A stretch of DNA of 64,000 nt from Candidatus Zhuqueibacterota bacterium (GCA_016214895.1 JACRMR010000012.1:297142-361141); one strand, 5' to 3'. Positions 12,180 through 42,475 are shown, numbered from the stretch's first letter. Program-made: numbers and translations. Notes: generated by a model from the sequence alone, not told the origin.

Positions 12180-12288
12180 CGATTTCCTCCCCACTGTTGG
12201 TGATTCGCCCGGTCGACACGGACGAGTCGAAGGACTGTCTGTTTGCGCCTTGCCGCCCCGCGGTGCGGGACGCCAAAGTACCTGCAGA

Positions 12289-13362: not shown

Positions 13363-13530
13363 TTCGGCCACGATGCCTTCTTTCTGCTGTCCTGCCGCCG
13401 GCGGACCGCCGACGACAACCGCGCTATCCGTTCCCGGGTCCACAGTGCGACCCGCTATTCTTCCCGATTCCTGTCTGACGTCCGACCCCCGATCATCTCC
13501 CGCTGTCGATTTCGCTTCCAGCAAGAGGGC

Positions 13531-13569
13531 GGTCACCGGGGCGGGAAGCGCACGAACGCCCCGGCGACC
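13531..13569 (-). terminator. GC-rich stem-loop between pilA and pilT (possible attenuator giving pilA>pilT expression)
   Basis: ggtcaccggggcg...cgccccggcgacc forms a 13-bp inverted repeat. The U-tract is weak. Confidence 0.3.
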
Positions 13570-13592
13570 ACATCATCTTCTCCGGCCAAAAC

Positions 13593-14015: not shown

Positions 14016-14547
14016 GCTCACTCCTTTTGAGTTTTCCTCCCCGCACAAGGTACGGTACCCCCCACGGGAACGTGGTTTACTGTATTATTAGTGGACGAGA
14101 AGGTACTACCGTAACTCAACTTTATCAAGTCCAAAACCCGCCTCGATTTGCACACTCCACAGTACGGCCACGACCCTGACATTGTTCAGAATCCTCCACG
14201 ATCGCATTTCAAGGGCACCTAATCCCATGAAAAACATGAGCTGACAAATTTCCGTCAACTGCAAAATCTGCAAGACCTGCATTGTTTGCGTACCTGACGA
14301 GAGGCCAAGTCTGCAAAAAGAAAAAGCCACACCCAAGAGGGCGCGGCCAATGCTGTACACCTGGTCACCGAACCGACCGCGCATTCGGCTGCCTCCCAAC
14401 GGAGTCCAGCCTCCTGCAACCCAGTTCCAGTAGCCGCGTCCGGCTTATGCCCTTTCGGAACCGGATCGCGCACGATGCGCCGGAATCGGATCACCCCCAC
14501 AGGTAACCCTGAACCGATTCACCGAGATCCCGCCCCGAGCGAGCACC

Positions 14548-17925: not shown

Positions 17926-20900
17926 TCAACGAAGCAACAGCAGCTTGCGCGTCTCGTCGAAGATCGATCCGGCGCGCAGACGATAGAAATAGACCCCGGA
18001 GGGCAGCGGCATGCCGTGGTCGTCGCGGCTATCCCAGCTCGCGGCATACTCCGATGCCGGCTGCAAGGCCCGTACGAGAGTGCGCACGGTGCGGCCGGTG
18101 AGATCATAGACAATGAGTTCGACGGCCGCCGTGCGCGGGATCACATACTTGATCGTCACGTCGCGATTGAACGGATTCGGAAATGCGTTCAACAGGCTGA
18201 AATTGGCGGGCGGAACCCGGGGCACGCCTTCCGCCTCGACGGAGTAACGACTGACCTCGCCGCCGACGGAAACGGCATCGACCCGATAGAAATAGCGGAC
18301 ACCGGGTGTGAGCCCGCGCTCCGTGAACACGTACCGCCACGCGGTCGCCGCCGTTCCGCGTCCGACCAGTTGCGAATAGTCCGTAAACGACGCCGTCGGA
18401 ATGTAGGTGGTATCGCCGTCCAGGCGACGATAGAGATTGAAGCCTTCGTTGTTCAGCTCCGATGCCACGGTCCAAATCACGCGCAGCGCGCCGAAGGCGG
18501 TGTCCTGTTCGGTGGTGAAGCCCGTGAATGTCACCGGTAAGGCGATGTCGCGCATTCCAATCGGCCAGGTCGTCGAAATCACCGGATCACCGCCGCAGTC
18601 GATCTGCTGCGGCGACGCGACAGAGAGCCGCACGCGATGATAGGCGTTCGCCGCCGCGGCAAACGAAATCGAGGTAAAAAGAAAGGTCTCCGATCCGCTC
18701 AGGGGAACGGAAAATCCGGAGAATTCGAAGGCCCCGCCGAACCACGGACCCAGCACCGCGATCTGCTGATCAGCGCCGGGACTGAAGACCGAATCCTGAC
18801 TCCACCACAGACGCGTGCCGGCCGGCTGCAAGTCAGCCGGGTCCATGTCACCGCCCACCGAAAAACTCACCGCGCGCAGCGCGCTCTGACCTTCCTGTGC
18901 CGTAAGGCCGAGATAGAACGCGAGTCGATCCACTTCGCCGGGGACTACCGGCTCCACGCCCAACGAGCCGCCGCGCACCAGCACGCTTGATCCGCTCGGC
19001 AAGCGGAGATCCGTGACCGACATCGCCTGCGGCGGATTCGCCAGCGCGTCACGGTACTCGATGGTGAGCATGTACACACCGCGCTGCACCAGCGACTCTC
19101 CGCCTTGGACCGAATCGATCCCGACGCCAAACGAAAGTTGCAATGGCACTAAGACAACGATCTTGTCGTTTTCGGCCGATACGTCAGAGAGAAACACCGT
19201 GTGAGGAGAGCCCGTGTCAAATTCGGGTCCGCCCGTCTGCGTAAGCGAAATGCGGAGCGTGCCCGGAGACGCCACTTCATCTTGATCCCAGTTGACGAGC
19301 AGTCCAGCGTAGGAAATAGTATCGCCCTCGGCTGGCGAATTGATGATCACCGGCGAGGTACTATTGTCGTAAACCGGAACGCGTACGAACGAATAAGCCA
19401 TGGCGTTTCCGCCCAGATCCTGGTAGCCGACCCGCAATGTGTATCGCGAGCCGTCATAGAGCTGGTTATTCTCGCCCGGCGTTCCTGCCCCCTCCACAGA
19501 CGTGACCAGATCCGAAGACAGGAGGTCCGCCGCGTTGAGAAAGAACCCCGTGCGTCCCCGGCTCGCCAGTTCACCGAGATGGACCGTCCGCGGGGAGCCC
19601 GGGTCCGTGCCGCCGATCGCGATAAACGACAGCACGACGCTCCCCGGCAGCGGAGCCTCGGGGATTTGCACTTGAATCCACACAGTTTGATTAAACCGCT
19701 GCCCCGTGATCGGGGCTTCGATCGTCGGCGTGAGCGTCGTCGCGTCCTGCGGCCAGATGTAGCCTTGCTCCGTGTCGCCGGAGTTCTCATTGCCCGCGAG
19801 ATCGCCGTAGCTCAAGCTGACGTTGTACACCACTTGCGATATCAGCCGGTCATCGAAGCCGTTCGGATTGTACTCGATGTGATCCGAGCCGGTCCCGATC
19901 GACCGGCCATCCAACAACAGCGTATGTAAACCGGCGAAGTAGTTCTCGCGATTCAGCAGCAGGTGGTGCTCGAGCGTGTCAACGCGCACGGACAGGGTGT
20001 CCATGACGAAACTCAGCCACACGGAATCCGCGGCTTCGGGCAACTGGTAGATAACGAGCACGGTGGAGTCTCCGCTCTCGGATCCCTGCCGCGGCTCGAT
20101 AAGATTCGGCGGCAGGGTCAGGAAGTCCGCCTGAATCGTGATGGCACTGTCCGCCGCTTCCGGGTTGTTGTTGACATCGGAATAGGCGATCAGGAACCGG
20201 AACCTCGCGTCGGGGGTCAGCGAATCGCCGCCCGAAAGCGAATGGACGTCCGGCGAATCGCCGAGATGAAACGCATCCAGTTGCACGCGCTTGTTCGCGC
20301 CATCGCTGAAATCTTCCAGCGTCAGGATGTGCTGCTCGTGCGCGTCCGGATCGACGTTCTCGATCACGAGGTAGAGCCGAAAGGTGTCCGCCCACTCCGG
20401 CTGACTGTACACCACGTCAAAAAAGCGGCTGATCGAAGAGCGATCGACCGGCTCCAGCAGCTCCGGGGGAACCGTGCGAGAATCCCGAAACGTGATGAAT
20501 CCGGAATGCAGCTCATCCACCGAATCCTGAGTCTCGATTGCGCCCGGGACCGTGACATACGAAACGCGATGAGCCGAGAACGTATCGACGTGCGCGGTAT
20601 CATTCGACATCACCGCCAATTCGGCCTGGAAGGACAGCACTCGACCATCGACCAGCGGTTTGAGCGACGCCCGCACACTTAAGCGAGGTGGAACCGAATC
20701 CGGCATGAACACATAGGTAATCCGGTCCACGTTCACCGGCAGCACCATGATGCGGGCCCCCGTGCAGGCCGGTCCCGTGTAACCGTGCAACAGCACCTGA
20801 TTCCGCGTGGCCGCGGCGAGGCCGATTTCGCTCACCGTCCAGTATGTGGAAGGAGTGTGAGAAATGATCAGGTAAAGGCTGTCGGAGTCTTCCACCACCG

Positions 20901-21072
20901 TATCGCGGGCAGTCGGTGAACCCGAGAGACCGATACCGATGACCTCAGGAATCGGCTGTGCCAGGGCGAGCAGGCAGTCCAGCGCCACGGCGAGCACGAA
21001 CCACCCGAGGCGGTAACGTCGATGGTATGGATTGAGGAGTGTCTGCATAAATATCGTGATTCGCCGCTGCAA
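17926..21072 (-). CDS. Large secreted hypothetical protein with T9SS C-terminal sorting domain
   Basis: 1048 aa with an N-terminal signal/TM. The C-terminus FPNPFNRDVTIKYVIPRTAAVELIVYDLTGRTVRTL...GVYFYRLRAG...KLLLLR is the Por/T9SS CTD signature. Confidence 0.6.
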   Translation of the reverse strand: MQRRITIFMQTLLNPYHRRYRLGWFVLAVALDCLLALAQPIPEVIGIGLSGSPTARDTVVEDSDSLYLIISHTPSTYWTVSEIGLAAATRNQVLLHGYTGPACTGARIMVLPVNVDRITYVFMPDSVPPRLSVRASLKPLVDGRVLSFQAELAVMSNDTAHVDTFSAHRVSYVTVPGAIETQDSVDELHSGFITFRDSRTVPPELLEPVDRSSISRFFDVVYSQPEWADTFRLYLVIENVDPDAHEQHILTLEDFSDGANKRVQLDAFHLGDSPDVHSLSGGDSLTPDARFRFLIAYSDVNNNPEAADSAITIQADFLTLPPNLIEPRQGSESGDSTVLVIYQLPEAADSVWLSFVMDTLSVRVDTLEHHLLLNRENYFAGLHTLLLDGRSIGTGSDHIEYNPNGFDDRLISQVVYNVSLSYGDLAGNENSGDTEQGYIWPQDATTLTPTIEAPITGQRFNQTVWIQVQIPEAPLPGSVVLSFIAIGGTDPGSPRTVHLGELASRGRTGFFLNAADLLSSDLVTSVEGAGTPGENNQLYDGSRYTLRVGYQDLGGNAMAYSFVRVPVYDNSTSPVIINSPAEGDTISYAGLLVNWDQDEVASPGTLRISLTQTGGPEFDTGSPHTVFLSDVSAENDKIVVLVPLQLSFGVGIDSVQGGESLVQRGVYMLTIEYRDALANPPQAMSVTDLRLPSGSSVLVRGGSLGVEPVVPGEVDRLAFYLGLTAQEGQSALRAVSFSVGGDMDPADLQPAGTRLWWSQDSVFSPGADQQIAVLGPWFGGAFEFSGFSVPLSGSETFLFTSISFAAAANAYHRVRLSVASPQQIDCGGDPVISTTWPIGMRDIALPVTFTGFTTEQDTAFGALRVIWTVASELNNEGFNLYRRLDGDTTYIPTASFTDYSQLVGRGTAATAWRYVFTERGLTPGVRYFYRVDAVSVGGEVSRYSVEAEGVPRVPPANFSLLNAFPNPFNRDVTIKYVIPRTAAVELIVYDLTGRTVRTLVRALQPASEYAASWDSRDDHGMPLPSGVYFYRLRAGSIFDETRKLLLLR

Positions 21073-21086
21073 GGGATATGCCGCGA

Positions 21087-23891
21087 TCAGCGGAGAATGA
21101 GCAGCTTTCCTGCGACGCGAACGGATGCCGTCTCGATTCGATAAAGGACCAGGCCGGAGGCAGGAGCAAACGGCGAACGGTCGAGCCGGATCGCAGTGGG
21201 ACCGCCGACGATGTTGGAATACCGCAACAGCTCCTGCCCCAGCAAGTTGTAGAAGACTACGGACGCGGTTTGCCCGAGCGGCAATTGCAAGCGCAGTTGG
21301 CCGTAGGCGGGAAGCGGATTCGGGTACAGCCGCGGCGTTTCGACCGCGATCGGCTGCCGGACGTCCGGCGCCGGGGGCAGTCCATAATGTGCGCGGGCTG
21401 AGTCCACCCGAGCTTGCAACCCGGCCATGTCGCCCGCCGTCGCGACCGCAAATACCACTGTGCGACTCGCCCCCGGCTCCAGCTCAAACGGTCCCACTGC
21501 CGTGACCAGACTCAAATCGAACTCCGTGCCCGGCGAGGCACCGATTCCGGACTGCAAAATCTGCCACTTGCGATTATCATCCCAACCAGCAGCAGGGGTC
21601 AACTGCTCGCGGTTATTGAGCACGGAATAGACCGTGAGCGGTGTGTTCAGACCCGCCAGCCCGATCAACGGCTGCCCCGGTGCGGTGGCGGAAACCACCG
21701 CGATGCCCGACGGGGTGTCGAATTGCGCGCGATTGCGCGATGACGGCCCCAGGTCCCAATCCATCATGAGTCCGACGAACGCAGAGTCCCAGCGATTCAC
21801 GGAACGGTTGGTAACGACGTATTCGAGACTCAGGTAATCGGCTTGGTCGTCGCCGGCGAAAGCCAGACCGGAGGCCTGCACCCGCGCGAACAGCGGCAGC
21901 GCGGCTCCGCGATCTTCGAACGTCGTCCGGACTTCCCGATCGGCGCGGGGAGAAGCGATTACGCGCGCGAAGCTATCGGGCATCGCGGTCCAATCGAACC
22001 GGGCAAACTCCGCATCACCGAAGAAATTGTCGATTACCTGTCCGTCCGCGGCCAGGACAAACGAACCGTGATACAACGCGCCGGTCGGACGTTCCGAAAG
22101 TCGCAGACCCGGCCCCAGGTATCGACGATTCGTATAGTCATGATAGCCCAGCGATCCGTGCTCCGCAAATCCGAGCTGGAGGTGGTTCGAGCTCAGCACC
22201 ACAAATGTCGAATCGAGGATCACGTCGGTCGTGGCGCGGCCGATGAGGCGATTGTCCGCCGCGAGAAAGTCCACGCTGATGGGAATGACCCGGTCGAAGC
22301 GCGATTCGGGCGGCAGTGTGATGCGAACCGGCGGGCTGTTCGCAAATGTGTGTCCGGCGATCATGTCGGGGTAGAACGTCAGCGGGTTGTTGATGCCCAC
22401 GCTGTCCTCGCGCGTCAAGACCAAGGCATGCACGCCGCTCAGCGGCCCGAGCTCATCCCACACGCCGATAACCAGCTCGGCGGATTCTCCCGGTTCCACA
22501 TGCCCGTCGCCGTCGCCATCGATTTCGAGATAGTCGGTGTACGCGATTCGGACTCCGCTGACGGAATCCGCCAATGCGCGGTAGGCATTCAATCGCCCTA
22601 AACCGAGACCACCCGCCTCCAACGAGTTCAACGCGTCGATCGGATCGGCCGATGACGCCACGCGCTGCGCCACCTGAAGGCCCGTGAGTCCGGGATAGCG
22701 CGACACGACCAAGCCACAGACCGCGCTGACAAACGGCGCCGCCATGCTGGTGCCCTGCCAGGTGTCATAGGCCGGGTTGCCCACGGTGTCGATCATCGTC
22801 GAGAGAATGGCCACACCCGGAGCGCTGAGCTTGATCCAAGGCCCGTACTGGGTGAAGTCAGCGGCGCGATCATCAAGCCGCGTCGCGGAAACACTCAAGA
22901 CGCCTTCCGAGGCGGCCGGATAATGTGGACTCGTCCGCGCGTTGATGTTGTTCCCGGCCGCCGCCACGACGACGGCTCCGCGCTGTAACACATGGTTGAG
23001 CACGTCCCGTTCGTAAGCAGACTCCGAGCCTCCGCCCCATGAGCAATTGATGACCCGCGCTCCCGCGCGCCAAGCATAGTAAACGCCTTCGAATCCGTAC
23101 GGAATCGAGTTGTTAGAACCCGCACGGATGCCCATGATTTTGCAATCGGGAGCAATCCCCGCGATGCCGCGCCCGTTGTTGCGCAGCGCGCCAATCACGC
23201 CCGCGACGTGAGTGCCGTGCGACTCATCCCGGACGCGCGGACTGGGAGTCGGATCGCCATCGCCGTCCACGAAATCATAACCGAACAGATCGTCGATGTA
23301 GCCGTTTAGATCGTCGTCCACTCCCGGCCAGCCCGCCTGCTCCGCCGAATTGCTCCAACTCTGACCGGCAAGCTCGGGATGTGTGAAGTCAACTCCGAGA
23401 TCCACCACCGCAATCGCCACCGTCGGATCGCCGCGGGTTAGATTCCACGCCGATTCCATCTCAATCTTTTGCAAACCCCACTGCTGAGTGTAGAACGGAT
23501 CGTCGGGAACGCCGTCGAGCGGCGACCGCCCCCCGTGTTCACGGGCGTCGCCGTCAACATACCTGATCGGCCGTCGTTCCGCATATTCGACGCGCACATC
23601 CTGGCTCAGCATCGCGAGCAGAACTGCAACATCGGCGGCTTGCCGCGCACGAACAACGCAGATCCGCGCCAGGTCGGGAGCCTCACGCGCGCTGACCGGC
23701 AGCGCCGGGTGGATCGCCTCGATTCGCGCATCCAGCTCCGGCAGCAAGGATGCCGCGTCAAGCGTGGCCGGCAGCTGTCGCCACTTCACCATGACATCCA
23801 GCGCGGGCGATCCCAGATCGGGGACACCGCAAAGGCCGGAGGCGACGATTGTGAACAGCAGTGCGAAGAGCAGAGGAATCGGAGTTCCCAT
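21087..23891 (-). CDS. S8 family subtilisin-like serine peptidase with T9SS C-terminal sorting domain
   Basis: Catalytic triad motifs (VAVVDLGVD; HGTHVAGVIG; GTSMAAPFVSAV) and the C-terminal CTD LYPNPLPAYG...VVFYNLLGQEL...KLLILR. Confidence 0.85.
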   Translation of the reverse strand: MGTPIPLLFALLFTIVASGLCGVPDLGSPALDVMVKWRQLPATLDAASLLPELDARIEAIHPALPVSAREAPDLARICVVRARQAADVAVLLAMLSQDVRVEYAERRPIRYVDGDAREHGGRSPLDGVPDDPFYTQQWGLQKIEMESAWNLTRGDPTVAIAVVDLGVDFTHPELAGQSWSNSAEQAGWPGVDDDLNGYIDDLFGYDFVDGDGDPTPSPRVRDESHGTHVAGVIGALRNNGRGIAGIAPDCKIMGIRAGSNNSIPYGFEGVYYAWRAGARVINCSWGGGSESAYERDVLNHVLQRGAVVVAAAGNNINARTSPHYPAASEGVLSVSATRLDDRAADFTQYGPWIKLSAPGVAILSTMIDTVGNPAYDTWQGTSMAAPFVSAVCGLVVSRYPGLTGLQVAQRVASSADPIDALNSLEAGGLGLGRLNAYRALADSVSGVRIAYTDYLEIDGDGDGHVEPGESAELVIGVWDELGPLSGVHALVLTREDSVGINNPLTFYPDMIAGHTFANSPPVRITLPPESRFDRVIPISVDFLAADNRLIGRATTDVILDSTFVVLSSNHLQLGFAEHGSLGYHDYTNRRYLGPGLRLSERPTGALYHGSFVLAADGQVIDNFFGDAEFARFDWTAMPDSFARVIASPRADREVRTTFEDRGAALPLFARVQASGLAFAGDDQADYLSLEYVVTNRSVNRWDSAFVGLMMDWDLGPSSRNRAQFDTPSGIAVVSATAPGQPLIGLAGLNTPLTVYSVLNNREQLTPAAGWDDNRKWQILQSGIGASPGTEFDLSLVTAVGPFELEPGASRTVVFAVATAGDMAGLQARVDSARAHYGLPPAPDVRQPIAVETPRLYPNPLPAYGQLRLQLPLGQTASVVFYNLLGQELLRYSNIVGGPTAIRLDRSPFAPASGLVLYRIETASVRVAGKLLILR

Positions 23892-25245: not shown

Positions 25246-25274
25246 CTTGACAATCCCGAGGCAAAACAGTATCT
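25246..25274 (+). promoter_or_regulatory. Candidate sigma-70-type promoter for kdsC-kdsD-lptC-lptA operon
   Basis: TTGACA (25246-25251), a 17-nt spacer, then TATCTT (25269-25274), ~35 nt upstream of the kdsC ATG. It lies in a divergent intergenic region. Confidence 0.4.
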
Positions 25275-25308
25275 TAAGTGAATACAAGCAAAAATTGTAC
25301 CCCGGGGC

Positions 25309-25902
25309 ATGGTTTCCGCCCGGGTGGAACTGCGAACCTCAACCGCCTTGCCCCCTTTTGACCTACTGACCCCCGAGCTGCGCGCCCGACTATCCAGAAT
25401 TCGATTTCTGCTATTAGATGTGGATGGCGTCCTCACCGACGGACGCCTATCGCTCTCGGACTCCGAAATCGAGGCGAAGACCTACTCTACGCGGGATGGC
25501 TTCGCCATCGTCTGGATCAAGAACTACGGCCTCGCCGTTGGCGTTATCTCCGGACGTCGCTCATCCGGAACCGACCGGCGTTGCCGCGACCTCAAGATGG
25601 ATGAAATTCACCTCGGACACCTGAAGAAGGTTGCCGTCTATGAAGAAATCGCACAGCGGCGCGGTCTCGGCGACGACGAAATCGCCTTTATCGGGGACGA
25701 TCTGATTGACCTCCCCTTAATGAAGCGAGTCGGGGTGTCCGCTTGTCCGGCAGATGCACACTTCGAAGTCGCGGCGCGCGTTGACGTCGTACTTCGACAT
25801 CCCGGCGGCAACGGCGCGATTCGGGAGTTCATCGATCTGTGGTTGATGGCGGCGGGCAAGTGGGAGCAGTCCATAGAGGACATCTTCAATGGCAATTATT
25901 GA
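25309..25902 (+). CDS. kdsC: 3-deoxy-D-manno-octulosonate 8-phosphate phosphatase (HAD family)
   Basis: HAD motifs LLLDVDGVLTDG and GDDLIDLP, a length of ~190 aa, and a position upstream of kdsD/lpt genes. Confidence 0.85.
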   Translation: MVSARVELRTSTALPPFDLLTPELRARLSRIRFLLLDVDGVLTDGRLSLSDSEIEAKTYSTRDGFAIVWIKNYGLAVGVISGRRSSGTDRRCRDLKMDEIHLGHLKKVAVYEEIAQRRGLGDDEIAFIGDDLIDLPLMKRVGVSACPADAHFEVAARVDVVLRHPGGNGAIREFIDLWLMAAGKWEQSIEDIFNGNY

Positions 25903-26893
25903 TCACACCGTCCCGGTACGGATCAAACCCGAGAGCCTGGCCGTCGCCACGCGTCTGATTCGGATCGAGGCGGAGTCAGTGCGGGCGCTATCGGAACGAA
26001 TTGACCCGGAATTTGAAAAGGCGGTCGCACTGCTCTCGGCTACCCGGGGGCGTGTGGTGGTGACGGGGATCGGGAAATCCGGTCACATCGGCAGAAAGAT
26101 CTCCGCGACTTTTGCCAGTACCGGAACGCCGTCGTCGTATCTGCATCCCTCCGAAGCCGCGCACGGCGACCTCGGAATGGTCACCCGGAACGATGCGGTG
26201 GTTGTCATCTCAAAGAGCGGATCGACGGACGACTTGTTGAACCTGATGCCGTATTTCAAGCTGCTGAACGTTCCCGTCATCGGTTTGCTCGGCGAAGTGC
26301 GAAGTCCGCTGGGCGAGAAATGCGACGTCGTGCTCGATCTGAGCGTGATCGAAGAGGGCTGTCCGCTGGACCTTGCTCCGACAGCCTCCACGACGGCGAC
26401 GCTGGCGATGGGGGACGCGTTGGCGGTGGCGTTGATGACTGAAAAGGATTTCAAGCCGCAGGATTTCGCGTTTCTGCATCCGGGCGGCGCGCTGGGACGA
26501 AGACTGAGCATGCGCGTCGAAGATGTGATGCACACCGGCGAGAATATTCCGATCAGTCCGGCCGACGCCTCCCTGCGCGAGTGCATCGTCGAAATGACGC
26601 GCAAGCGCCTCGGCGCCACCTGCATCCTCTCGACCGCGGGGGAACTGGCCGGGATCTTCACGGACGGCGATCTGCGCCGGGCCTTCGAGCGTGGAGTGGA
26701 GCTGGAGACTACGCGAGCACTGCAGGTTGCTACCCTCAGACCCAAGACCATCGCTCCGCAAACCCTGGTTGCCCGGGCAGTGAACCTCATGGAGGCATAC
26801 AATATCCTGGTGTTGCCGGTCGTCGCCCTCGACGGCCACGTGGTCGGCATCGTCCACCTGCACGATCTGCTGAAATCGGGAATCGGCCGGTGA
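25889..26893 (+). CDS. kdsD: Arabinose-5-phosphate isomerase (SIS plus tandem CBS domains)
   Basis: SIS motif VVVTGIGKSGHIGRKISATFASTGTPS and C-terminal CBS pair. It overlaps kdsC by 14 nt. Confidence 0.9.
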   Translation: MAIIDHTVPVRIKPESLAVATRLIRIEAESVRALSERIDPEFEKAVALLSATRGRVVVTGIGKSGHIGRKISATFASTGTPSSYLHPSEAAHGDLGMVTRNDAVVVISKSGSTDDLLNLMPYFKLLNVPVIGLLGEVRSPLGEKCDVVLDLSVIEEGCPLDLAPTASTTATLAMGDALAVALMTEKDFKPQDFAFLHPGGALGRRLSMRVEDVMHTGENIPISPADASLRECIVEMTRKRLGATCILSTAGELAGIFTDGDLRRAFERGVELETTRALQVATLRPKTIAPQTLVARAVNLMEAYNILVLPVVALDGHVVGIVHLHDLLKSGIGR

Positions 26894-27480
26894 CGTTTCC
26901 CGCGTTGCTCGCGCTGTTAGCACTTGCCCTGTGCAGCGGCTGCACTAAGATCGGCGGGCCGGACGCCGACAAAGCGGCGGGTGAATTGCCGGAGCAGGAA
27001 TTGTACAACGCCACGATCCGCTTCTATCAGAGCGAGCGAACCTCCGCGATCCTGCGCGCCGGGCGAATCCGCAAATTCCAAAAGCAGTCCACCGTGCTGT
27101 TGGACCAGAGAGTACACATCGATTTCTTCAACCAGGCCGGTCAACACACGACTTCGCTCGTCTCCGATTCAGCCCGCGCGGACGACACCAAGCATGATAT
27201 GGTCGCCATGGGACACGTGGTCGCGAAGTCCGATAGCGGCGAGATTCTGGAGACGCAATTCCTGCGCTGGGAGAATAAGACGCGACGAATCATCTCTGAC
27301 GCTCCAGTCAAGCTCTCCACGCCGACCGACACGCTCTTCGGCAGCCATTTTGTCTCGGACGAACACCTGCGAAACTGGCAGATCGAGCAGCCCACAGGCG
27401 TAACTTTCCGTGAGCTGGAGCAGCGCGCTCAGCGCGACAGCGCGGCGGGCGCGCCGCCGGACACCGCGGCGAACGAGTGA
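26890..27480 (+). CDS. lptC: LPS export system protein LptC (GTG start overlapping kdsD stop)
   Basis: N-terminal anchor FPALLALLALALCSGC and an OstA-like beta-jellyroll segment. It sits between kdsD and lptA. The track ORF 26581..27480 is over-extended in the 5' direction inside kdsD. Confidence 0.6.
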   Translation: MTFPALLALLALALCSGCTKIGGPDADKAAGELPEQELYNATIRFYQSERTSAILRAGRIRKFQKQSTVLLDQRVHIDFFNQAGQHTTSLVSDSARADDTKHDMVAMGHVVAKSDSGEILETQFLRWENKTRRIISDAPVKLSTPTDTLFGSHFVSDEHLRNWQIEQPTGVTFRELEQRAQRDSAAGAPPDTAANE

Positions 27481-28640
27481 CGTCGATGCTGCGCCGACTC
27501 TTATCGCTGATCTTCGTCGTGTGCGCCGTGCGCGGATGGCCGCAAGAGAGCACACCGATCGTGCTGGAGCGCGCCAACTCATTGCAATCGTTTGAAACGA
27601 ACGGCACGCGCTGGCAGGAGTTGCGCGGCGACGTGATGATGACTCGCGACAGCCTGACCGTTACCTGCCAGAACGCGCTGTACTATCCGGACTCGGGTCT
27701 GGTCATCTTCACGAATAACGTCGAGTTCCGCGATCCGACCCGGCTGCTACTCGCCGATGAAGTCATTTACAACGACTTCACGCAGGAAGTTCTGGCCACG
27801 AGCAATGTGCGCATCTACCAGCAAGATACGCTGTCGGCGACAGCCCGCAAGGCAAAGTATCGCCAGCGCTTCAAGCAGGCCTGGCTCTACGATGATGTAA
27901 GACTCCGCGAGGAGAACCGGCGGATTCTGCTGAGCGGAGCGGTCGGCTACCTGGATCACGAGCGCAATTACGGCTGGGTTGCAGGCAACCCGGTCCTGGT
28001 CGAACGAGACTCCTCCCTGAGAGTCACGACCGAAATCCACGGCGATACCGTTATCTACGACGATGCGCTGGATCAAGCGCGATGCGTCGGCAAGGTCACG
28101 ATCGAACGCGACAGCCTGATCGCCAGCGGTTCCGACCTCGTCTATTCCACGCAGCAGAAGGTCGCCGTGCTCACCGGTTCACCCGTCGCAACGCGGGCGC
28201 AGGACGTGATTAACGGCGATACCTTGAAATTGCACTTCGAGGGCGAAGTACTGGATCGCGTCGAGGTGATCGGCAACGCCCTCGCTACCAGCCCCGCGGA
28301 CAGCGGATTCAGCGAGCCGCGGCACCGGATGGAAGGCCAGCGGATGACGCTCTGGGTTGACAGCTCGCGGATCTCGCGGGCGCTGATTGAAGGCAATGCC
28401 ATCGCGACCTACTTCGTGCGCGAAGACAGCCAGCCGCGCGGACTGAATATCACCTCCGGCGACCGGCTCCGCGTCTTCTTCGACGAGCACAAGATCTCCC
28501 GGATCCGCGTCGAGGGCGGCACCGAAGGCAATTACACTCCGCAACGACTAATGGCCGCTGCCGCCGCCGACACTACGGCCGCCCGACCGCAGAGTACACC
28601 GCCGCCGCCGCGCCGCGCGCCGGGTCTGCCACGCAGATAG
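27477..28640 (+). CDS. lptA: LPS transport periplasmic protein LptA / OstA-N domain protein
   Basis: Signal peptide then OstA_N-like repeats (LTVTCQNALYYPDSGLVIFTNNVEF...). The start overlaps the lptC stop. It is longer than E. coli LptA (387 aa, with a Pro/Ala-rich tail). Confidence 0.7.
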   Translation: MTSMLRRLLSLIFVVCAVRGWPQESTPIVLERANSLQSFETNGTRWQELRGDVMMTRDSLTVTCQNALYYPDSGLVIFTNNVEFRDPTRLLLADEVIYNDFTQEVLATSNVRIYQQDTLSATARKAKYRQRFKQAWLYDDVRLREENRRILLSGAVGYLDHERNYGWVAGNPVLVERDSSLRVTTEIHGDTVIYDDALDQARCVGKVTIERDSLIASGSDLVYSTQQKVAVLTGSPVATRAQDVINGDTLKLHFEGEVLDRVEVIGNALATSPADSGFSEPRHRMEGQRMTLWVDSSRISRALIEGNAIATYFVREDSQPRGLNITSGDRLRVFFDEHKISRIRVEGGTEGNYTPQRLMAAAAADTTAARPQSTPPPPRRAPGLPRR

Positions 28641-28716
28641 TCTGCGCCCTCATTTCACCACTTAGGTTCCGGCTCCGTAACGGCGATGAAGCGGAGCTCT
28701 ATCAGGAGATCAGCAA

Positions 28717-31227
28717 TTGGCGAGTCCGAAGTCTCGTACCAAACCTGCCCACACCGCGACCGAGCCGCCTGCTTCCGCAATGCGGCCGTGGCTGCGCGAC
28801 GCCATTGCCTGCGCCGCGATCTTCCTCGCGGTCTTCATCATGTTCCCGGAAATGGCAATCAACGGCAAACTCTTCTCGCGCGGAGATGACAGCGAGTCCG
28901 CCGCCTCGATGAACGAATTCGCCGTGCAGGAGGCGCAGGCGCGGGAGTATCCGCTCTGGTGCCCATACGTGTTCGGGGGCTTTCCGTCGTTGGCCGCCGG
29001 CGGCTATTCGAACTACGAGCACATGGGCATGCCGTACGCGCTGGCCAATCGCTATCTTTCGCCGCGCTACTGGATGGACGTCGTGACCACGCGAGTGCTG
29101 TTTTGGGGCGGCTTCGGCGATGAACATTCCAGCGCGCGCTGGCTACTCGCGCTGTTCCTCTATGCCGGGCTGTTCACCTATCTGCTCATGCGCAGTCTGA
29201 ACTTCGATGCCTTGATTTCGCTGTTCAGTTCACTGCTCATGGCCTGGAATCCGTATCTGATTTCGCTGGCGACGGCTGCGCACGGCGGAAAGATGATGAC
29301 CTTCATCTATCTGCCGCTGATTCTGCTCTTGACGTGGAACGTCATGAGCAAGCGGCGACTCTTGGATCTGGCTTTGCTGGCGGCGGCCTTCGGCTGGCAA
29401 ATCGCCGTGGGGGGGCACACGCAGATCCTGTTCTACAGCTTTGCCGCGGTAGGGCTCGTCTATCTGGTCTGGCTGATCTTTGAGCTGAAAGAGCGTCCGT
29501 TGGCGCTGGCCTTCAAGCCCGCCGCGTTCATCGGCGTCGCGCTGCTGCTGGGCTTCGCCGTCGGGGCACTTTGGTATGTCCCGCTCCTGAAGTTCGTCGG
29601 CTATTCGATTCGCGGCATGGCGCCGGCGTTTGCCGAGACCGCGCAGCCCGGCTATTCGATGGCGGACGCGACGATGTGGTCGTTTCATCCACAGGAGCTG
29701 CTCACGTTCGTCGTGCCGTCGTGGTTCGGTCTGAAATCCCCGTACTACTGGGGCGACATGCCGTTCACGTCGTCGAGTTTCTACTTCGGCGTTGTGCCGC
29801 TGCTGTTCGCCGTGCTGGCCTTTTTCGGGAAGAAGGACCGCCTGTTCTGGGGATTGTTAGCGGTTTCCGGGTTTGCTTTGCTGCTCTCGTTCGGCAAGCA
29901 CTTCGAGACCTTCTACGGCCTGTTCTTCGACCACTTCCCCTTCTTCAACAAGTTCCGAACACCGTCGCTGATCCTGCTGTTGGCCGTACTGGCGGGCATC
30001 GTGTGGGCGGGTTACGGGTTGCGGTTCGTACTGGGTCTCGGAGAAGACCCAAAGTGGAAGAAACGATTCCTGATTGGCGGGGTCGTCTGTTTGGCGCTGC
30101 TGCTGCTGTTTGTCGTGGCCGGCGGAGTCTTCTCCGGACTGTTCGGATCGTTCGCAAAAGCCGGTGAAGAGCGCCAATACAACCCGCAGCAACTCGAGCA
30201 GCTCCGGCAGATTCGGTTTGACATGCTGAAGAAAGACCTGTTGTTCTCCTTGTTCTGGTTGACCGCCGCGTTTGCCGCGTGCTGGGCACTCCTGTCGCGC
30301 AAGCTGAAGCCGAACCTGTTCCTCATCGGGATGATTCTGATTACGCTGATTGACCTCTGGCGGTTCTCCCATCAGTTCTTCGAGCCGCAGCCGGCCGGAG
30401 ACGCACTGGCCGGCCTGAAACCCAACAAGGTGGTCGAAGCGCTGAAGTTGGACAAGAGCGTGTTTCGGGTGATGCCGCTCGGTCGAATCGCACAGGACAA
30501 CCGGTGGGCGGCATGGGAGGTCGCGTCGCTCGGCGGCTATCATGGCGCCAAGATGCGCAGTTATCAGGACTATCAAGACTACGTCTTCACCAAGGGCAGC
30601 GATCCGCAAGTTCCGGTCAACTTCGAGTGCTACTCCGCGATGAACTGCAAGTACTTCGTCGCGGAGGGGCAACTACCGCCCGAACTCGGTTATGAGCAGG
30701 TCGCTGTGGACCAACAGGCAAAGTGGATCCTCTATCGCAATTCCCACGCGCTCGAACGCGCCTATTTCGTGGACTCCGTGGAAACGATCAGCGACCGCAA
30801 GCAGGTGCTGCAACGACTGACGCGCGGCGACTTTGCATGGAACAGCATGGCAACTATTAATGAATCGCTGCCGGGCGCGATCGCGGTCGGCGTGCAGCGG
30901 CGGGCCGAGGTCTCTGAGTACATTCCGCACCGGGTGAAGCTGCGCGCCGAAGTCGCCGGCCCGTCCTTCATGGTATTCTCGGATGCCTACTATGAACCGG
31001 GTTGGGAAGCGCTGGATAACGGCAAACCCGCCCGGATCTATCTCGTGAACGGCTACGTGCGCGGGCTGTTCTTGCAACCGGGAACTCATGAAATCGAGTA
31101 CCGGTACGTGGGGACGTACGAGCGGCGCGGCGTGTTGATCGCCACCGTCGCGCATTTCCTCGTGTGGGGACTGGTCGCCGGCTGTTTCCTGTATGAACGG
31201 CGGCGCCGACTGGTGGCCGCGGCGTGA
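28717..31227 (+). CDS. YfhO-family-like polytopic membrane protein (putative lipid/glycan glycosyltransferase) embedded in lpt operon
   Basis: 836 aa with >10 TM helices in the first ~500 aa, a large extracytoplasmic domain and a final C-terminal TM ([16 protein letters not shown]), which is the YfhO architecture. Its stop overlaps the lptB start (31224-31227). Confidence 0.55.
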
Positions 31228-32015
31228 TGGCGGAACACGATAGCGATGTTCGCATCGAGCGGAGTCGTCCCGAGGCGCTGCGCGAAGCCGCCGTGTTGCG
31301 CGGCCGCGATCTCTTGAAGCGCTACGGCCGCCGCACGGTGGTGGACTCGGTCACCGTGCACGTATCAACCGGCGAAATTGTCGGCTTGCTGGGTCCGAAC
31401 GGGGCCGGCAAGACGACCACGTTCTACATGATGACCGGCATGATCCAGCCGAACGGCGGAGAGATTCTGCTGGGCGACACCGTCATTACGCGCATGCCGA
31501 TGTACCGGCGGGCGCGGCTGGGCATCGGCTACCTCGCGCAAGAGCCGTCAGTCTTTCGCAAGCTCACGGTCGAGCAGAACCTGATGGCCATTCTGGAGCT
31601 GCTCCCCATTCGTCGCCGCGAACGCCAGGAGCGAATGCAGCAATTGCTCGAAGAGTTCACGCTCACGCAGGTGGCGAAGAACAAGGGGTATCAGCTCTCC
31701 GGCGGCGAACGTCGCCGCGTCGAAATCGCAAGGTCGTTGGTCACGCGTCCGAAGTTCATGTTGCTTGACGAGCCGTTCGCCGGAATCGACCCCATTGCCG
31801 TCAACGATATCCAGCAGATCGTAAAAGGGCTGAAGGGCCGCGGCTTGGGTGTGCTGATCACGGACCACAATGTCCACGAGACCCTGGCCATCACCGACCG
31901 CTCCTATCTCCTCTACAGCGGCCGGCTATTGAAAGAGGGCTCAGCCGAGTTTCTGGCCAGTGATGAAGAGGCGCGCCGAATCTACCTCGGCGACACCTTC
32001 AAACTGGGTCGGTAG
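31224..32015 (+). CDS. lptB: LPS export ABC transporter ATP-binding protein LptB
   Basis: Walker [13 protein letters not shown] signature [15 protein letters not shown], Walker B MLLDEP, an LptB-type C-terminal extension, and a position immediately upstream of rpoN. Confidence 0.9.
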
Positions 32016-32235
32016 CGGCCGTGCGGCAGGTCTGACCGTGTCATGAGGTATGTCATAGCAATTAGTGCCTCTATCAACCAGCGAAGTCCCCGAGGCAAAT
32101 CCGTGAGCAGGTCGGACTCCCGATCAAATTCGTTTTCTCTAACTCGTATAAATACAATTATTAATGATTTCTTGAAATCGATGACGGGAACCCGAAACAT
32201 ATGTGCGCAGTGATTGGCATAGGGGTTGCATGTCA

Positions 32236-32297
32236 GAGGTGGGTGATCAGGCTGGTCTCACGTCAACTCGCTGTGCACGTTCCTGATCACACCCACC
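32236..32297 (+). promoter_or_regulatory. Long imperfect inverted repeat (16-bp arms, ~30-nt loop) in AT-rich lptB-rpoN intergenic island
   Basis: gaggtgggtgatcagg ... cctgatcacacccacc. The surrounding region 32040-32230 is conspicuously AT-rich compared with the rest of the window. Confidence 0.35.
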
Positions 32298-32340
32298 CGT
32301 AGTCAACCCTCTCTGTCGTCCGGCCTCCAGGTAATGAACC

Positions 32341-33831
32341 ATGACCCAACTCCGGCAAGAATTTCGTCAGCACCAGCGACTTGAGCAGTACCTCCAACCG
32401 CAACAGATCCTCCGCAGCGAGCTGATCCAATTGCCCTTGCTCGAGCTCGAACTTCGAGTCCGGCAAGAGCTGGTGGAAAACCCGTTTCTCGAAGAGATCG
32501 CCGAGGACGAGGCCATTGTGGACAAGCAGCAAGTCGAGCTGGAATCGGATACCGCGGCGGCAACCTACGAGACTGACCACTCGGAAAATGGGACGACCGA
32601 AAAAGCGGCCGAGATAGAATCCGCGCAGGAGGCGACCAAGGAGTCGGACGTTGACTGGGAGAACTTCCTCAGCGATGACGCCGATCAAGGTCTATTCCGG
32701 GCCGGAAAGCACATGCCCGATGACATGGTGGAGACCCCGCAGGCTTTCGTGCCCACGCTGTCCGAACACCTTGAGGAGCAGTTGCGATTACAGCGGCTTA
32801 CCCCGGATGAATTAAAGGTCGGGCAGTACATCATCGGCTCGATCAACAACGACGGCTATCTGAAATACCCGGTCGAAGAAATCGCGCGCGAACTCAATGT
32901 GCCGGTGCCGCTGGCGGAGAAGGTGCTGGCCTTGGTCCAGCAACTCGACCCGCCCGGAATCGGGGCGCGACACCCGCAGGAATGCCTGTTGATTCAACTT
33001 CGCCAGTGGGACCATCAGGACAAAGCGCGATTGCCAATTCAAATCCTGACCGAGGCCTACGATGACTTGCTCAATAAGCGCTACGAAGTGATCGCCAAAA
33101 AGATGAATGTTGCGCTCGACCAGGTTAAGCAGGCCTTCGCCGAGATCCGCAAACTCAACCCCAAGCCGGGCGAAGGCTATTTCGATGAGAAACAGAACTA
33201 CGTTGTCCCGGACCTGGTCGTGACTCGCGCCGGCGGAGATGACGACGAATTCATCGTCTTCCTGAACGACGGAAATATCCCCAGCTTCCACATCAACACG
33301 GCCTACAAGGAGATGTTCCTGTCGGGAAATACCGACAAGAAAGTCAAGGAGTTCGTCACCCGCAAACTCGAGAGCGCCCGCTGGTTCATTAACGCGATTC
33401 ATCAACGGCAAACCACGATTCTGCGCACCATGCGCGCCATTGTCAAGCGGCAAGAGGGCTTCTTCCGCCACGGCAAGGAACATCTCAAACCGATGATCCT
33501 GCAGGATATTGCCGAGGAAATCGGGATGGACATTTCCACGATCTCTCGCGTGACGTCCGGAAAGTACGTGCAGACCGAGTGGGGCGTCTTCGAGCTGAAG
33601 TACTTCTTCTCCGAACGCATGGAAACCACCGACGGCGAGGAGATTTCCACGAAAGTCATTAAGGCCCGCCTGCTCGACATCATCGAACAGGAAGGCAAAT
33701 CAGATCCGCTCTCCGACCAGACCATCGCCGAGATGCTGGCCAAGGAGGGCTACCCCATCGCGCGCCGCACCGTCCAGAAATACCGCGAGCAATTGGCCAT
33801 CCCGGTCAAGCGCTTGCGGCGAGAGATCTGA
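32341..33831 (+). CDS. rpoN: RNA polymerase sigma-54 factor
   Basis: Gln/Leu-rich region I (LRQEFRQHQRLEQYLQPQQILRSELIQLPLLELE), the core-binding region, the C-terminal HTH and the RpoN box ARRTVQKYRE. Confidence 0.9.
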   Translation: MTQLRQEFRQHQRLEQYLQPQQILRSELIQLPLLELELRVRQELVENPFLEEIAEDEAIVDKQQVELESDTAAATYETDHSENGTTEKAAEIESAQEATKESDVDWENFLSDDADQGLFRAGKHMPDDMVETPQAFVPTLSEHLEEQLRLQRLTPDELKVGQYIIGSINNDGYLKYPVEEIARELNVPVPLAEKVLALVQQLDPPGIGARHPQECLLIQLRQWDHQDKARLPIQILTEAYDDLLNKRYEVIAKKMNVALDQVKQAFAEIRKLNPKPGEGYFDEKQNYVVPDLVVTRAGGDDDEFIVFLNDGNIPSFHINTAYKEMFLSGNTDKKVKEFVTRKLESARWFINAIHQRQTTILRTMRAIVKRQEGFFRHGKEHLKPMILQDIAEEIGMDISTISRVTSGKYVQTEWGVFELKYFFSERMETTDGEEISTKVIKARLLDIIEQEGKSDPLSDQTIAEMLAKEGYPIARRTVQKYREQLAIPVKRLRREI

Positions 33832-33854
33832 TTCCCGACGCAGTTTCCGCTCCG

Positions 33855-33884
33855 GGGCCGGCCTTCCGCCGGCCCTGTTTGTTG
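33855..33884 (+). terminator. Intrinsic terminator after rpoN
   Basis: ggggccggc-cttcc-gccggccc followed by tgtttgtt. Confidence 0.5.
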
Positions 33885-40431: not shown

Positions 40432-42402
40432 TTACTTCAATAACACAACCTTGCGTGTGGAGTTCTGTCCGTCCGCGCGCAAATGTACGAAATAGACTCC
40501 GGCCGTCAAATCCGAACCATCAACGGCGATCCGGTGAAGGCCGGCAGTCTGCACGTCGTCAGCAAGGGCCCGCACCAGCCGACCGGCCACGTCATACAGT
40601 CTGACCGTTGCCGCTCCGGTCCGCGGTAACATGAATTCGACCACGGCCGTCGGATTGAACGGATTCGGATAAATGCTCGTGATGCCAAACTCGCGCGGTA
40701 CGACGCCGCGGGTCTCCGCGTCCAGCACAAATGCGGTCACCGTAATCACAATGTCGCTGTCGGGACAAGTGTTCGACGCCAGCAAAATCTGACCGATGTA
40801 ATCCCAGATCGCGCTATCACTCGTGTCGGGCGAAATCGTGACCTCGAAGTCTTGCAGCTCGCCCGGCAGCACGGTCAGGTCCGCCGGACTCACCGACAAC
40901 CAGGGGTCCGGGACCAGATTGCCCTGCGCGGTTGCAGAGACATGCAGCGGACCATCTCCGTTGTTCAGCACCGGAATCTGTGCGGTTGCGGTCGTGCGAT
41001 TATGCACAATCACATTCAGGGAGCTGACTTGCACGTCGATCAGCGGCCGCCGGAGCAGGAAGTTCAAGACCGCCGCCGAGTCCGCGTTGGCGACAACACC
41101 GCCCACCATCGTATCCGTCCAGCACGGATGCTGCGTCATCAGCGTGTAAGTACCGGGCGCGGTCAGCAACGAATACTCGCCCGTCTGACTCGTAAACGCC
41201 GTCACTCCCGTCTCGAGGATTCTGACCGGAATGCGATCCAGAAATTGCCCGCCGCCCAACGCCCGCACCGTCCCCATCACCTGCGCCGGTGTTCCCATCC
41301 GGTTCTCGTAGAATTGCATCTGCGACTGCTGATTCTCGCAGACGAGGAAATCCGCATCACCGTCCTGGTCCACATCGCCGATCGATATACCCATATTGCG
41401 GTAATTCGCCGTCAACGTCTGATAGCTGAAGCTGAGATTACCGTTGTTGCGCCACCAGTACACCGCGCCATCCGCCGCGACCCCGACGATGTCCAGCGTG
41501 CCATTCATGTCAAAATCAGCCAGCGCCGTCCCACGCGGATACGAGATGGACGTCGAGAGCGCCTGCTCGGTCATCCCGCCGCTCCCGCCGATCCACAAGA
41601 CGATGCGACCGCCATCGTAATCGCTGACGATCACGTCGTCGAAGCCATCCGCGTTCACATCGCCGCCGGTGACCCACGTCGTCGAACCCAAGGTCCCCAA
41701 TGTGTGCGATTCCCAGGTCGTAAGGTTCACCTGCTCAACCCAGTACACGCCCCGCCAATCCGTCCCCACGACAACGTCGCGGTCGCCGTCGTGGTCAATG
41801 TCCGCCGTGGCAACGTCCAGCGGATGACTGCCGGTGATGTTCACGGCATCGACCAGCACGAGCGAGTCCCCGACGGACACGAACATCTGGATTACATTAG
41901 ACAAATAGGCCGCGACCACCAGGTCGGGAACCCCGTCGCCGCTGATATCGTCCACACAAACGTCGAATTGGCCCTGCTGACCGTCTCCGACTTGCCGGAC
42001 CGTGAACGCATTCGCACCGCCGAGGCCCGTTGCTGTCAGAATGTAAGTCGTATTCAGGCCGTAGGCGGCCAGCGCAATGTCATCTCGTCCGTCCTGATTA
42101 AAGTCCGCCACCGCAAGATGGCGAAACGTCCCGCCGCCGATATTCAGCTGCCGCGCCTGCCGCGTCCGGTCCGGCAACGTCTCCAGCCAGAAGATGGTTC
42201 CGGAGAATCCACAGGCGGCAATGTCAAGGTCGCCGTCGCCATCAAAATCACCGGTGCCGGCCGAATACAACTCGAGGACATCCGATGAAATTGTCGTGCG
42301 CACGAAATCCTGCGCTCGCAGCGCTTCGCCGTAGCCCATCAGTGTGATCATCAACCCGCACGCCAGCGTGAGGGCGATAGTTGCCGGTCTCCGCACAGGC
42401 AA
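40432..42402 (-). CDS. FG-GAP/VCBS repeat protein with T9SS C-terminal sorting domain
   Basis: Repeated FG-GAP-like motifs (DFDGDGDLDIA, DFNQDGRDDIA, DISGDGVPDLV, DIDHDGDRDVV, DVNADGFDDVI) and the CTD SIYPNPFNPTAVVEFML...VRLYDVAGRLV...KVVLLK. Confidence 0.75.
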   Translation of the reverse strand: MPVRRPATIALTLACGLMITLMGYGEALRAQDFVRTTISSDVLELYSAGTGDFDGDGDLDIAACGFSGTIFWLETLPDRTRQARQLNIGGGTFRHLAVADFNQDGRDDIALAAYGLNTTYILTATGLGGANAFTVRQVGDGQQGQFDVCVDDISGDGVPDLVVAAYLSNVIQMFVSVGDSLVLVDAVNITGSHPLDVATADIDHDGDRDVVVGTDWRGVYWVEQVNLTTWESHTLGTLGSTTWVTGGDVNADGFDDVIVSDYDGGRIVLWIGGSGGMTEQALSTSISYPRGTALADFDMNGTLDIVGVAADGAVYWWRNNGNLSFSYQTLTANYRNMGISIGDVDQDGDADFLVCENQQSQMQFYENRMGTPAQVMGTVRALGGGQFLDRIPVRILETGVTAFTSQTGEYSLLTAPGTYTLMTQHPCWTDTMVGGVVANADSAAVLNFLLRRPLIDVQVSSLNVIVHNRTTATAQIPVLNNGDGPLHVSATAQGNLVPDPWLSVSPADLTVLPGELQDFEVTISPDTSDSAIWDYIGQILLASNTCPDSDIVITVTAFVLDAETRGVVPREFGITSIYPNPFNPTAVVEFMLPRTGAATVRLYDVAGRLVRALADDVQTAGLHRIAVDGSDLTAGVYFVHLRADGQNSTRKVVLLK

Positions 42403-42475
42403 TCTCGCTTCGTGGTAAGTGTCAGAATCCGCTGCCGGTCTTCTCTACACGACAGCCCACACCGTCAGCTCATAT

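Follow-up and report, generated by a model that had tools for sequence, protein, structure and literature searches.

Why should a gene for a large membrane protein interrupt the lptC-lptA-lptB trio of the lipopolysaccharide (LPS) exporter? The question is raised by a stretch of 64,000 nucleotides from Candidatus Zhuqueibacterota bacterium (GCA_016214895.1, JACRMR010000012.1:297142-361141), referred to here as the window, in which all coordinates are counted. Its plus strand carries a kdsC-to-rpoN region (25309-33831) and, within this, between an lptA-like gene and lptB, a gene for an 836-aa polytopic protein resembling the YfhO family. We report that this protein is predicted to be a glycosyltransferase of the GT-C fold and that its place in the operon is conserved and derived. 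What is new about the locus is a conserved genomic link between the LPS exporter and an enzyme class already known, an operon variant previously undescribed; a literature search, which did not specifically target the lptCAB arrangement, found no account of a GT-C gene inside lptCAB or of a YfhO-family protein acting on LPS.

A gene inserted at the lptA/lptB junction

In Escherichia coli, the canonical yrbG-lptB locus carries the cluster kdsD-kdsC-lptC-lptA-lptB-rpoN. The window holds the same set of 3-deoxy-D-manno-octulosonic acid (Kdo), Lpt and rpoN genes in nearly the same order, but here a GT-C gene of 2.5 kb splits lptA from lptB, and LptA, at ~390 aa, is about twice its E. coli length. 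The flanking genes are bona fide lptC, lptA-like and lptB: the scores of hidden Markov models (HMMs) make the identifications of LptB, LptC, KdsD and RpoN firm (Table 1), while the LptA-like protein is assigned by Pfam only and falls under the threshold of the NCBIfam LptA equivalog TIGR03002 (36.5 bits against a cut-off of 71.7). The inserted open reading frame (ORF) begins with TTG, and a chance ORF or a mis-called start was ruled out by its GC content at third codon positions (0.80, compared to 0.76-0.81 in its neighbours), by an N-terminus of the form M-[TA]-[ST]-K that is common to its homologues, by the Shine-Dalgarno-like AGGAG lying 8 nt before the start, and by the matching NCBI call of the same 836-aa product (MBI5059628.1, 'hypothetical protein', from a 'candidate division KSB1 bacterium' assembly, adjoining the LptB entry MBI5059629.1). 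Homologues at E ≤ 1e-3 number 404, many of them full length. An initial annotation of the locus had already described an 836-aa polytopic gene between lptA and lptB, and we confirmed it at 28717-31227 on the plus strand; the span then given, 26890-32015, does cover lptC through lptB but is wider than the inserted gene.

The junction of the inserted gene with lptB reads GCG GCG TGA TGG, with the TGA stop at 31225-31227. Two starts are available to lptB, a GTG at 31224, which gives a 4-nt overlap, and an ATG at 31227, which gives a 1-nt overlap and is the 262-aa call of NCBI. The overlap of the lptB start with the TGA stop at 31224-31227, as claimed in the initial annotation, was thus read directly from the junction, and the ATG alternative accounts for the string quoted there. 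Given the 4-nt overlap, the gene is predicted to share a transcript with the LPS exporter, to which it would also be translationally coupled. Scanning for promoters and terminators revealed no site above chance between the inserted gene and either lptA or lptB. Overlaps also join kdsC to kdsD (14 nt), the kdsD stop to the lptC start (GTGA, 26890-26893) and lptC to lptA (GTGA, 27477-27480). The gap of 76 nt before the inserted gene is the sole non-overlapping junction from kdsC through lptB, and has the look of a seam left by the insertion.

Comparison with related genomes showed that the insertion is not confined to this one. The order kdsC-kdsD-lptC-lptA-yfhO-lptB-rpoN-lon was found in every checked relative at 47% identity or above, where the contig extends far enough, giving at least 14 conserved loci (L001-L004, L007-L014, L094 and L095) that include eight GTDB species representatives. 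The overlap of the yfhO-like gene with lptB takes the form NTGA in 9 of 10 related loci, and in the tenth the stop and start abut as TAGATG; the gap upstream of the yfhO-like gene in these relatives is 16-25 nt. A recent horizontal insertion unique to the genome was ruled out by these 14 conserved loci and by a GC content like that of the flanks, with no discontinuity. The uniqueness that would have undone the initial annotation is therefore absent, and the stop/start coupling on which it had relied is itself conserved.

The polarity of the change can be read from the outgroups (LptB 69-73% identity), which include metagenome-assembled genomes (MAGs) labelled Calditrichaeota and 'Candidatus Electryoneaceae'. 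In agreement with the initial statement that the trio is normally contiguous, lptC, lptA and lptB adjoin one another in all four outgroup loci, and a 4-nt overlap joins lptA to lptB in three of them. Since the nearest outgroups keep lptA and lptB adjacent, these sequence comparisons identify the insertion as derived, clade-specific and placed exactly at the ancestral lptA/lptB junction, where it has persisted even as the inserted protein drifted to 47% identity. Other genes recruited to the region in the outgroups are LPS genes, namely kdsA, kdsB and a lipid A acyltransferase. The lpt-embedded gene also looks like the only close family copy of the lineage, as no second close paralogue appeared among the best 80 matches from the eight species-representative genomes of the clade (the weakest of those listed having E ~1e-82), with MAG incompleteness as a caveat.

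The labels that NCBI gives to MAGs of the clade are 'candidate division KSB1', 'Calditrichota' and plain 'bacterium'; the window genome itself is recorded as candidate division KSB1. Four of the loci (L007, L008, L010 and L012) bear the label 'uncultured Alphaproteobacteria bacterium', which is evidently wrong, and the placement of the lineage is unsettled in the records.

Fold, family and conserved residues of the inserted protein

A full-length AlphaFold2 model of the inserted protein had a predicted local distance difference test score (pLDDT) of 85.9 and a predicted template modelling score (pTM) of 0.85. In a Foldseek search with this model, every match at E ≤ 1e-3 was a GT-C enzyme, and the top PDB matches were all GT-C. 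The structure comparison list was headed by STT3B (19.5), followed by AftD (18.7, with 532 residues aligned), PglB (18.7), Pmt4 (16.9), AftA (15.5), AglB (13.2) and ArnT (12.0). On the basis of the model, the inserted protein is assigned as a 14-helix glycosyltransferase of the GT-C fold, and the restriction of the fold matches to GT-C enzymes rules out a permease or another non-glycosyltransferase membrane protein. A sequence search against solved structures returned no useful match (best E 2.3). Hydropathy and charge predict a cytoplasmic N-terminus rich in Lys and Arg, a first transmembrane helix (TM1) at residues 24-50, an acidic periplasmic loop at 54-139 and about 12 further helices. The whole has the architecture of YfhO-type proteins, with a multi-helix N-terminal module, a large extracytoplasmic domain, here of 250 residues, and a C-terminal helix.

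Assignment to the YfhO family required more distant evidence. The match of the window protein to Pfam YfhO (PF09586) reaches 17.3 bits (E 0.0016), short of the gathering cut-off of 28.5, and is confined to residues 759-808, which align with the last 50 positions of the profile; an NCBIfam scan returned no family for it. On the other hand, 36 of the 38 aligned relatives match PF09586 at E ≤ 0.01 (best E 2.4e-15), and the protein itself gives full-length matches (93-100% coverage, E to 1e-126) to PF09586 proteins, several of them named 'YfhO family protein'. By these sequence relationships it is a YfhO protein in a broad, transitive sense, and appears as a member of an uncharacterised, divergent branch that is widespread in the Fibrobacterota-Chlorobiota-Bacteroidota (FCB) group. 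The YfhO-type glycosyltransferase proposed in the initial annotation holds in the same broad sense, supported by homologues and GT-C fold matches and with a sub-threshold Pfam score of its own. The many transmembrane helices, large outer loop and terminal transmembrane helix described there are borne out by the model and the topology prediction, and none of the family or fold searches pointed to a non-glycosyltransferase family.

An alignment of 38 sequences, spanning 27-80% identity, located the conserved residues. Asp58 lies within a G-D-D/T motif just after TM1 and is invariant (38/38), and with it the protein has the conserved acidic residue in the first extracytoplasmic loop, in a DxD or modified motif, that is a trait of GT-C enzymes. 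Also invariant in all 38 sequences are K192, H234, Q236, R299, E327, K412, R414, R500 and D546. Judged from the alignment, this residue pattern fits what a periplasm-facing GT-C active site should show, with D58 as the putative catalytic or metal-binding acid.

Membership in better-studied groups was also considered. The STT3/PglB/AglB oligosaccharyltransferases (OSTs) were rejected, there being no WWDYG-type motif in any of the 38 aligned sequences; ArnT/PMT-type enzymes (GT83/GT39) were rejected for want of a match to the PMT and PMT_2 family HMMs; and the WaaL/Wzy_C O-antigen ligases were rejected because PF04932 gave no match and the fold matches GT-C, not WaaL.

Candidate donor and acceptor, and competing explanations

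Characterised GT-C enzymes offer several points of comparison. In Bacillus subtilis, Staphylococcus aureus and Listeria, YfhO is a GT-C enzyme that adds N-acetylglucosamine (GlcNAc) from undecaprenyl-phosphate-GlcNAc (C55-P-GlcNAc) to lipoteichoic or wall teichoic acid. The window protein is like these enzymes in belonging broadly to the same Pfam family, in combining a GT-C module with a large extracytoplasmic domain and a C-terminal helix, and in its expected site at the outer face of the cytoplasmic membrane, where the known acceptor of YfhO is a lipid-anchored polymer. It differs from them in scoring below the Pfam cut-off and in its host, a diderm of the FCB group with LPS genes, in which teichoic acids are not expected; moreover, it has no CsbB-type GT2 glycosyltransferase or GtcA-type flippase gene beside it and is instead embedded in the lpt operon. 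AftD, the mycobacterial arabinofuranosyltransferase (PDB 6W98/6WBX) that its periplasmic domain resembles, shares only 15-16% identity with the window protein, is much larger (~1,300 aa) with extra carbohydrate-binding modules, and works in another type of cell envelope, with decaprenyl-phosphate-arabinose as its donor.

Periplasmic modification of LPS by GT-C enzymes has precedents. ArnT, which transfers 4-amino-4-deoxy-L-arabinose (L-Ara4N) to lipid A, and the periplasmic modifiers of O antigen, namely the GtrC types and the three-component GT136 system (Kelly et al. 2024), all draw on polyprenyl-phosphate sugars. Among the GT-C enzymes that modify the LPS O antigen in the periplasm are ones with carbohydrate-binding domains. 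In these systems the donor synthase and the flippase are encoded alongside, in arn, gtr or O-antigen loci, unlike the window gene. A further comparison is with the 'YfhO' proteins of Bacteroidota (bioRxiv 10.64898/2026.07.27.740950), which belong to the same Pfam family and superphylum, are likewise large and polytopic and have a function that is predicted only; in Bacteroides, yfhO adjoins sahH or mtnN-luxS, not lpt genes. The same preprint reports YfhO of the Bacteroidales as predicted to be essential, and a 2023 survey had singled out YfhO-like proteins as a large glycosyltransferase family that is functionally dark. The FCB-group branch is large and conserved, with a function known by prediction only, and a sole close copy fixed in an LPS-export operon provides independent genomic evidence on the acceptor of the family, bearing on the open question of what YfhO does in the FCB group.

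Beyond the clade, relatives at 27-33% identity occur in MAGs labelled Ignavibacteria, other Bacteroidota, Calditrichota, KSB1, Cloacimonadota, Marinimicrobia, Fidelibacterota and LCP-89. The immediate co-directional genes upstream of family members encode Wzx/MATE-type flippases (15 of 44), GT1/GT4 glycosyltransferases (11 of 44), methyltransferases and GT2 enzymes, and those downstream encode histidine kinases (15 of 43). In a sister clade at 39-40% identity, the yfhO-like gene follows GT2, GT9 (the LPS heptosyltransferase family) and GT4 genes; in an Ignavibacteria genome (L088, 1-10493), it ends a cluster of methyltransferase, GT2, two adjacent Wzx, GT4, methyltransferase, GT2 and GT4. To judge from these neighbourhoods, the family is consistently tied to the assembly of a flipped, lipid-linked glycan, with the acceptor left undefined by context; MATE/Wzx-type flippases are known to serve oligosaccharide and single-sugar donors alike. 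The sister-clade cluster (L005/L006, 2945-9369; L087, 1701-11554) runs in full as GT2, a 671-aa protein of unknown type, GT9, a 211-aa protein of unknown type, GT4, YfhO, S-adenosylmethionine-dependent methyltransferase and histidine kinase. Two BMC-domain genes come after the YfhO-like gene in L088, and the same pair follows it in L089.

Taken together with the operon, these comparisons lead us to favour, tentatively and at somewhat under an even chance, a role for the enzyme as a periplasmic glycosylase or ligase of lipid A-core, acting before Lpt export. In one uncultured lineage, the gene entered the lptA/lptB junction of an ancestral kdsC-kdsD-lptC-lptA-lptB-rpoN operon and took over the 4-nt stop/start overlap with lptB. 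According to this proposal, the active site, built around the invariant Asp58 of the first periplasmic loop, would face the periplasm; a flipped polyprenyl-phosphate carrier, the type of donor that the modelled fold suggests, would supply a sugar or a short glycan, and the AftD-like periplasmic domain would hold the acceptor to which this is passed. That acceptor would most likely be lipid A-core, reached at the outer leaflet of the inner membrane immediately ahead of its extraction by LptB2FGC, so that the enzyme would act as a periplasmic glycosylase or ligase of LPS or lipooligosaccharide (LOS). Lipid A-core is favoured because the remaining genes of the operon are all Kdo or Lpt genes, because the genes recruited to the region in neighbouring phyla are LPS genes, because the sister clade pairs its yfhO-like gene with a GT9, and because the periplasmic domain is similar to the one in an enzyme whose acceptor is a lipid-linked polysaccharide. 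The absence of the WWDYG-type motif from all 38 sequences suggests in addition a glycan rather than a peptide acceptor. The arrangement raises a competing hypothesis for the family, namely glycosylation or ligation of LPS/LOS at the point of export, and if this is true, the decoration of LPS by a GT-C enzyme would be directly tied to Lpt transport.

Several considerations weigh against this proposal. The organisms are uncultured and the gene is known from genomes alone; membership of an operon is no proof of a common pathway, as rpoN and lon are likewise conserved neighbours. No lpt genes were found beside the distant family members (L015-L086), and the link to Lpt is for this reason clade-specific, while the flippase, GT4, GT2 and methyltransferase context outside the clade fits any flipped-glycan pathway, protein O-glycosylation included. 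Among the window ORFs scanned there was no gene for a GT2 polyprenyl-phosphate-sugar synthase or a GtrA-type flippase, although such partners need not be linked. Finally, the Bacteroidota preprint (bioRxiv 10.64898/2026.07.27.740950) predicts that YfhO is a protein O-oligosaccharyltransferase. The initial annotation had suggested a modification of LPS or lipid A tied to LPS transport; its identity, insertion, coupling and conservation stand, and the modification itself, argued from genomic context, is plausible rather than established. If the LPS reading is wrong, the arrangement would be a lineage-specific operon curiosity.

A bolder extension of the same proposal would hold for the FCB group as a whole. 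The YfhO-like family might consist of GT-C-type ligases of LPS/LOS glycan or of outer-core glycosylases, functional alternatives to WaaL that act on lipid A-core at the periplasmic face just before Lpt extraction; in this lineage its member would have become coupled genetically, perhaps physically, to LptB2FGC. We consider this improbable as it stands, but were it true, the essential 'YfhO' of Bacteroidota would be an LPS-assembly enzyme and not a protein O-oligosaccharyltransferase.

The strongest rival is the one raised by the preprint, in which the inserted protein would be the general protein O-oligosaccharyltransferase of the lineage, passing a Wzx-flipped, undecaprenyl-diphosphate-linked oligosaccharide to Ser/Thr residues of periplasmic and outer-membrane proteins, with its place among the lpt genes reflecting co-regulation of the envelope. 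The Comstock laboratory reached this prediction for Bacteroidota YfhO (PF09586) in silico, on the strength of an HHpred match to Pmt4, conservation across nearly the whole phylum, an essential role predicted for the gene and 12 transmembrane segments (bioRxiv 10.64898/2026.07.27.740950). It gains from the reach of the window protein's family into Ignavibacteria- and Bacteroidota-labelled genomes, from the flippases and GT4/GT1 enzymes that precede family members and from the resemblance of the Ignavibacteria cluster to an O-glycan locus; furthermore, as apparently the sole close family copy in the clade genomes, the gene probably carries the general function of its family. The assignment is itself a prediction only, however, and the same preprint reports YfhO as absent from Porphyromonas gingivalis, a species whose O-glycoproteome is characterised (PMC10897501). 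The periplasmic domain, moreover, is much closer to AftD, which has a polysaccharide acceptor, than to any peptide-binding OST domain, the WWDYG motif is missing, and the fixation and coupling of the gene precisely inside lptCAB, like the GT9 neighbour in the sister clade, would be left unexplained. We regard this rival as a serious but doubtful one.

It is also conceivable, if unlikely, that the enzyme glycosylates, polymerises or ligates a different glycan of the envelope, for instance a capsule, an exopolysaccharide, a periplasmic glucan or a glycan of the S-layer or cell surface, its location among the lpt genes being an accident that was kept as the downstream overlap makes excision costly. 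Known YfhO and GT-C relatives do work on many different polymers, the neighbourhoods of the family are generic glycan-assembly clusters, and the window includes a gene for Wza-type polysaccharide export (2633-4351); an accident of this kind fits poorly with an arrangement and overlap that have outlasted a divergence of the protein to 47% identity, with the LPS nature of the genes recruited to the region in related phyla, and with the GT9 neighbour in the sister clade. That the protein is no longer primarily an enzyme but a structural or regulatory partner of LptB2FGC would explain a stoichiometric coupling to LptB, and would suit both the conserved translational coupling and the position of the gene, flanked by those for the periplasmic bridge and for the ATPase, but it is very improbable, since the catalytic-type residues D58, K192, H234, R299, E327, K412 and R414 are invariant across phyla, even far from lpt genes, which argues for a conserved enzymatic function, and since any interaction with Lpt proteins is purely hypothetical.

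Layout of the operon and other features of the window

The coordinates of the operon, of the inserted gene and of the parts of its product are collected in Table 1.

Table 1. Features of the kdsC-to-rpoN region, all on the plus strand, with the evidence for each
Feature	Position	Strand	Evidence or remark
Sigma-70-like promoter match	25247-25275	+	TTGACA-17-TATCTT, 10/12 matches, upstream of kdsC; possible operon promoter
kdsC (Kdo-8-phosphate phosphatase family)	25309-25902	+	TIGR01670, 144 bits (cut-off 107)
kdsD (arabinose-5-phosphate isomerase)	25889-26893	+	TIGR00393, 325.6 bits; SIS and CBS domains
lptC	26890-27480	+	TIGR04409, 64.4 bits (cut-off 38); PF06835
Long LptA-like (OstA-type) periplasmic protein, 387 aa	27477-28640	+	OstA_2, 46.8 bits, and LptD_N, 43.5 bits, both above cut-offs
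Gap, 76 nt	28641-28716	+	Shine-Dalgarno-like AGGAG at 28704-28708; upstream edge of insertion
Inserted gene, YfhO-like GT-C glycosyltransferase (predicted), 836 aa	28717-31227	+	Homologues, Pfam matches of relatives, model, fold matches
Membrane GT-C module, aa 24-552, ~13 helices	28786-30372	+	
Codons for Asp57-Asp58, first periplasmic loop	28885-28890	+	D58 in 38/38 sequences, D57 in 23/38
Periplasmic alpha/beta and beta-sandwich domain, aa 553-803, AftD-like	30373-31125	+	
C-terminal transmembrane helix, aa 804-826, then RRRR tail	31126-31194	+	Model and hydropathy
GTGA stop/start overlap of yfhO-like gene and lptB	31224-31227	+	Junction read from sequence
lptB (LPS export ATP-binding cassette ATPase)	31224-32015	+	TIGR04406, 353.9 bits (cut-off 240); identical to MBI5059629.1
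rpoN (sigma-54), conserved downstream neighbour	32341-33831	+	TIGR02395, 431 bits
Intrinsic-terminator-like hairpin, strong	33853-33877	+	10-bp stem, 9 GC pairs, then T-rich tail; after rpoN

The promoter match upstream of kdsC is a match to consensus only, one of three found by the sigma-70-like scan where 2.3 are expected by chance. The hairpin after rpoN, the only strong one of the terminator-like kind, is likely the end of the transcription unit. Between lptB and rpoN lie 325 untranslated nucleotides (32016-32340) with only a weak terminator-like hairpin at 32110-32125, and rpoN may have its own promoter; an Rfam scan of the window, this gap included, matched no RNA family. The 387-residue LptA-like protein contains two OstA-type stretches and a C-terminal tail rich in Pro and Ala. 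Proteins of 358-395 aa fill the LptA position in the relatives and in the outgroup phyla, and an LptA of ~380 aa is normal for these lineages. The N-terminus of LptC (26890-26960), LLALLALALCSGC, has a lipobox-like Cys and resembles a lipoprotein signal rather than a plain membrane anchor.

Elsewhere in the window, the minus strand at 2633-14048 carries a type IV pilus or secretion cluster with a Wza-like Poly_export/SLBB protein, a secretin, PilO, PilN, PilM, a T2SSE ATPase and a prepilin with an N-methylation motif; several ORFs in this cluster (9104-10648, 10912-11796 and 11694-12335) have no Pfam match. Three adjacent ORFs with prephenate-dehydrogenase domains form an unusual tandem on the minus strand at 51515-55546, one of 396 aa (PDH_N, PDH_C and ACT), one of 363 aa (PDH_N only) and one of 500 aa (PDH_C only). 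Large secreted proteins are encoded at 17926-23891 and 40432-50796, two of them, an FG-GAP protein and a SusE-like protein, with type IX secretion C-terminal sorting domains. The same two regions also encode a 934-aa S8 peptidase, a 1048-aa protein with a FlgD-Ig-like domain and a 1048-aa protein with three lamin-tail domains, and these large secreted or type IX-sorted proteins fit an origin in the FCB group.

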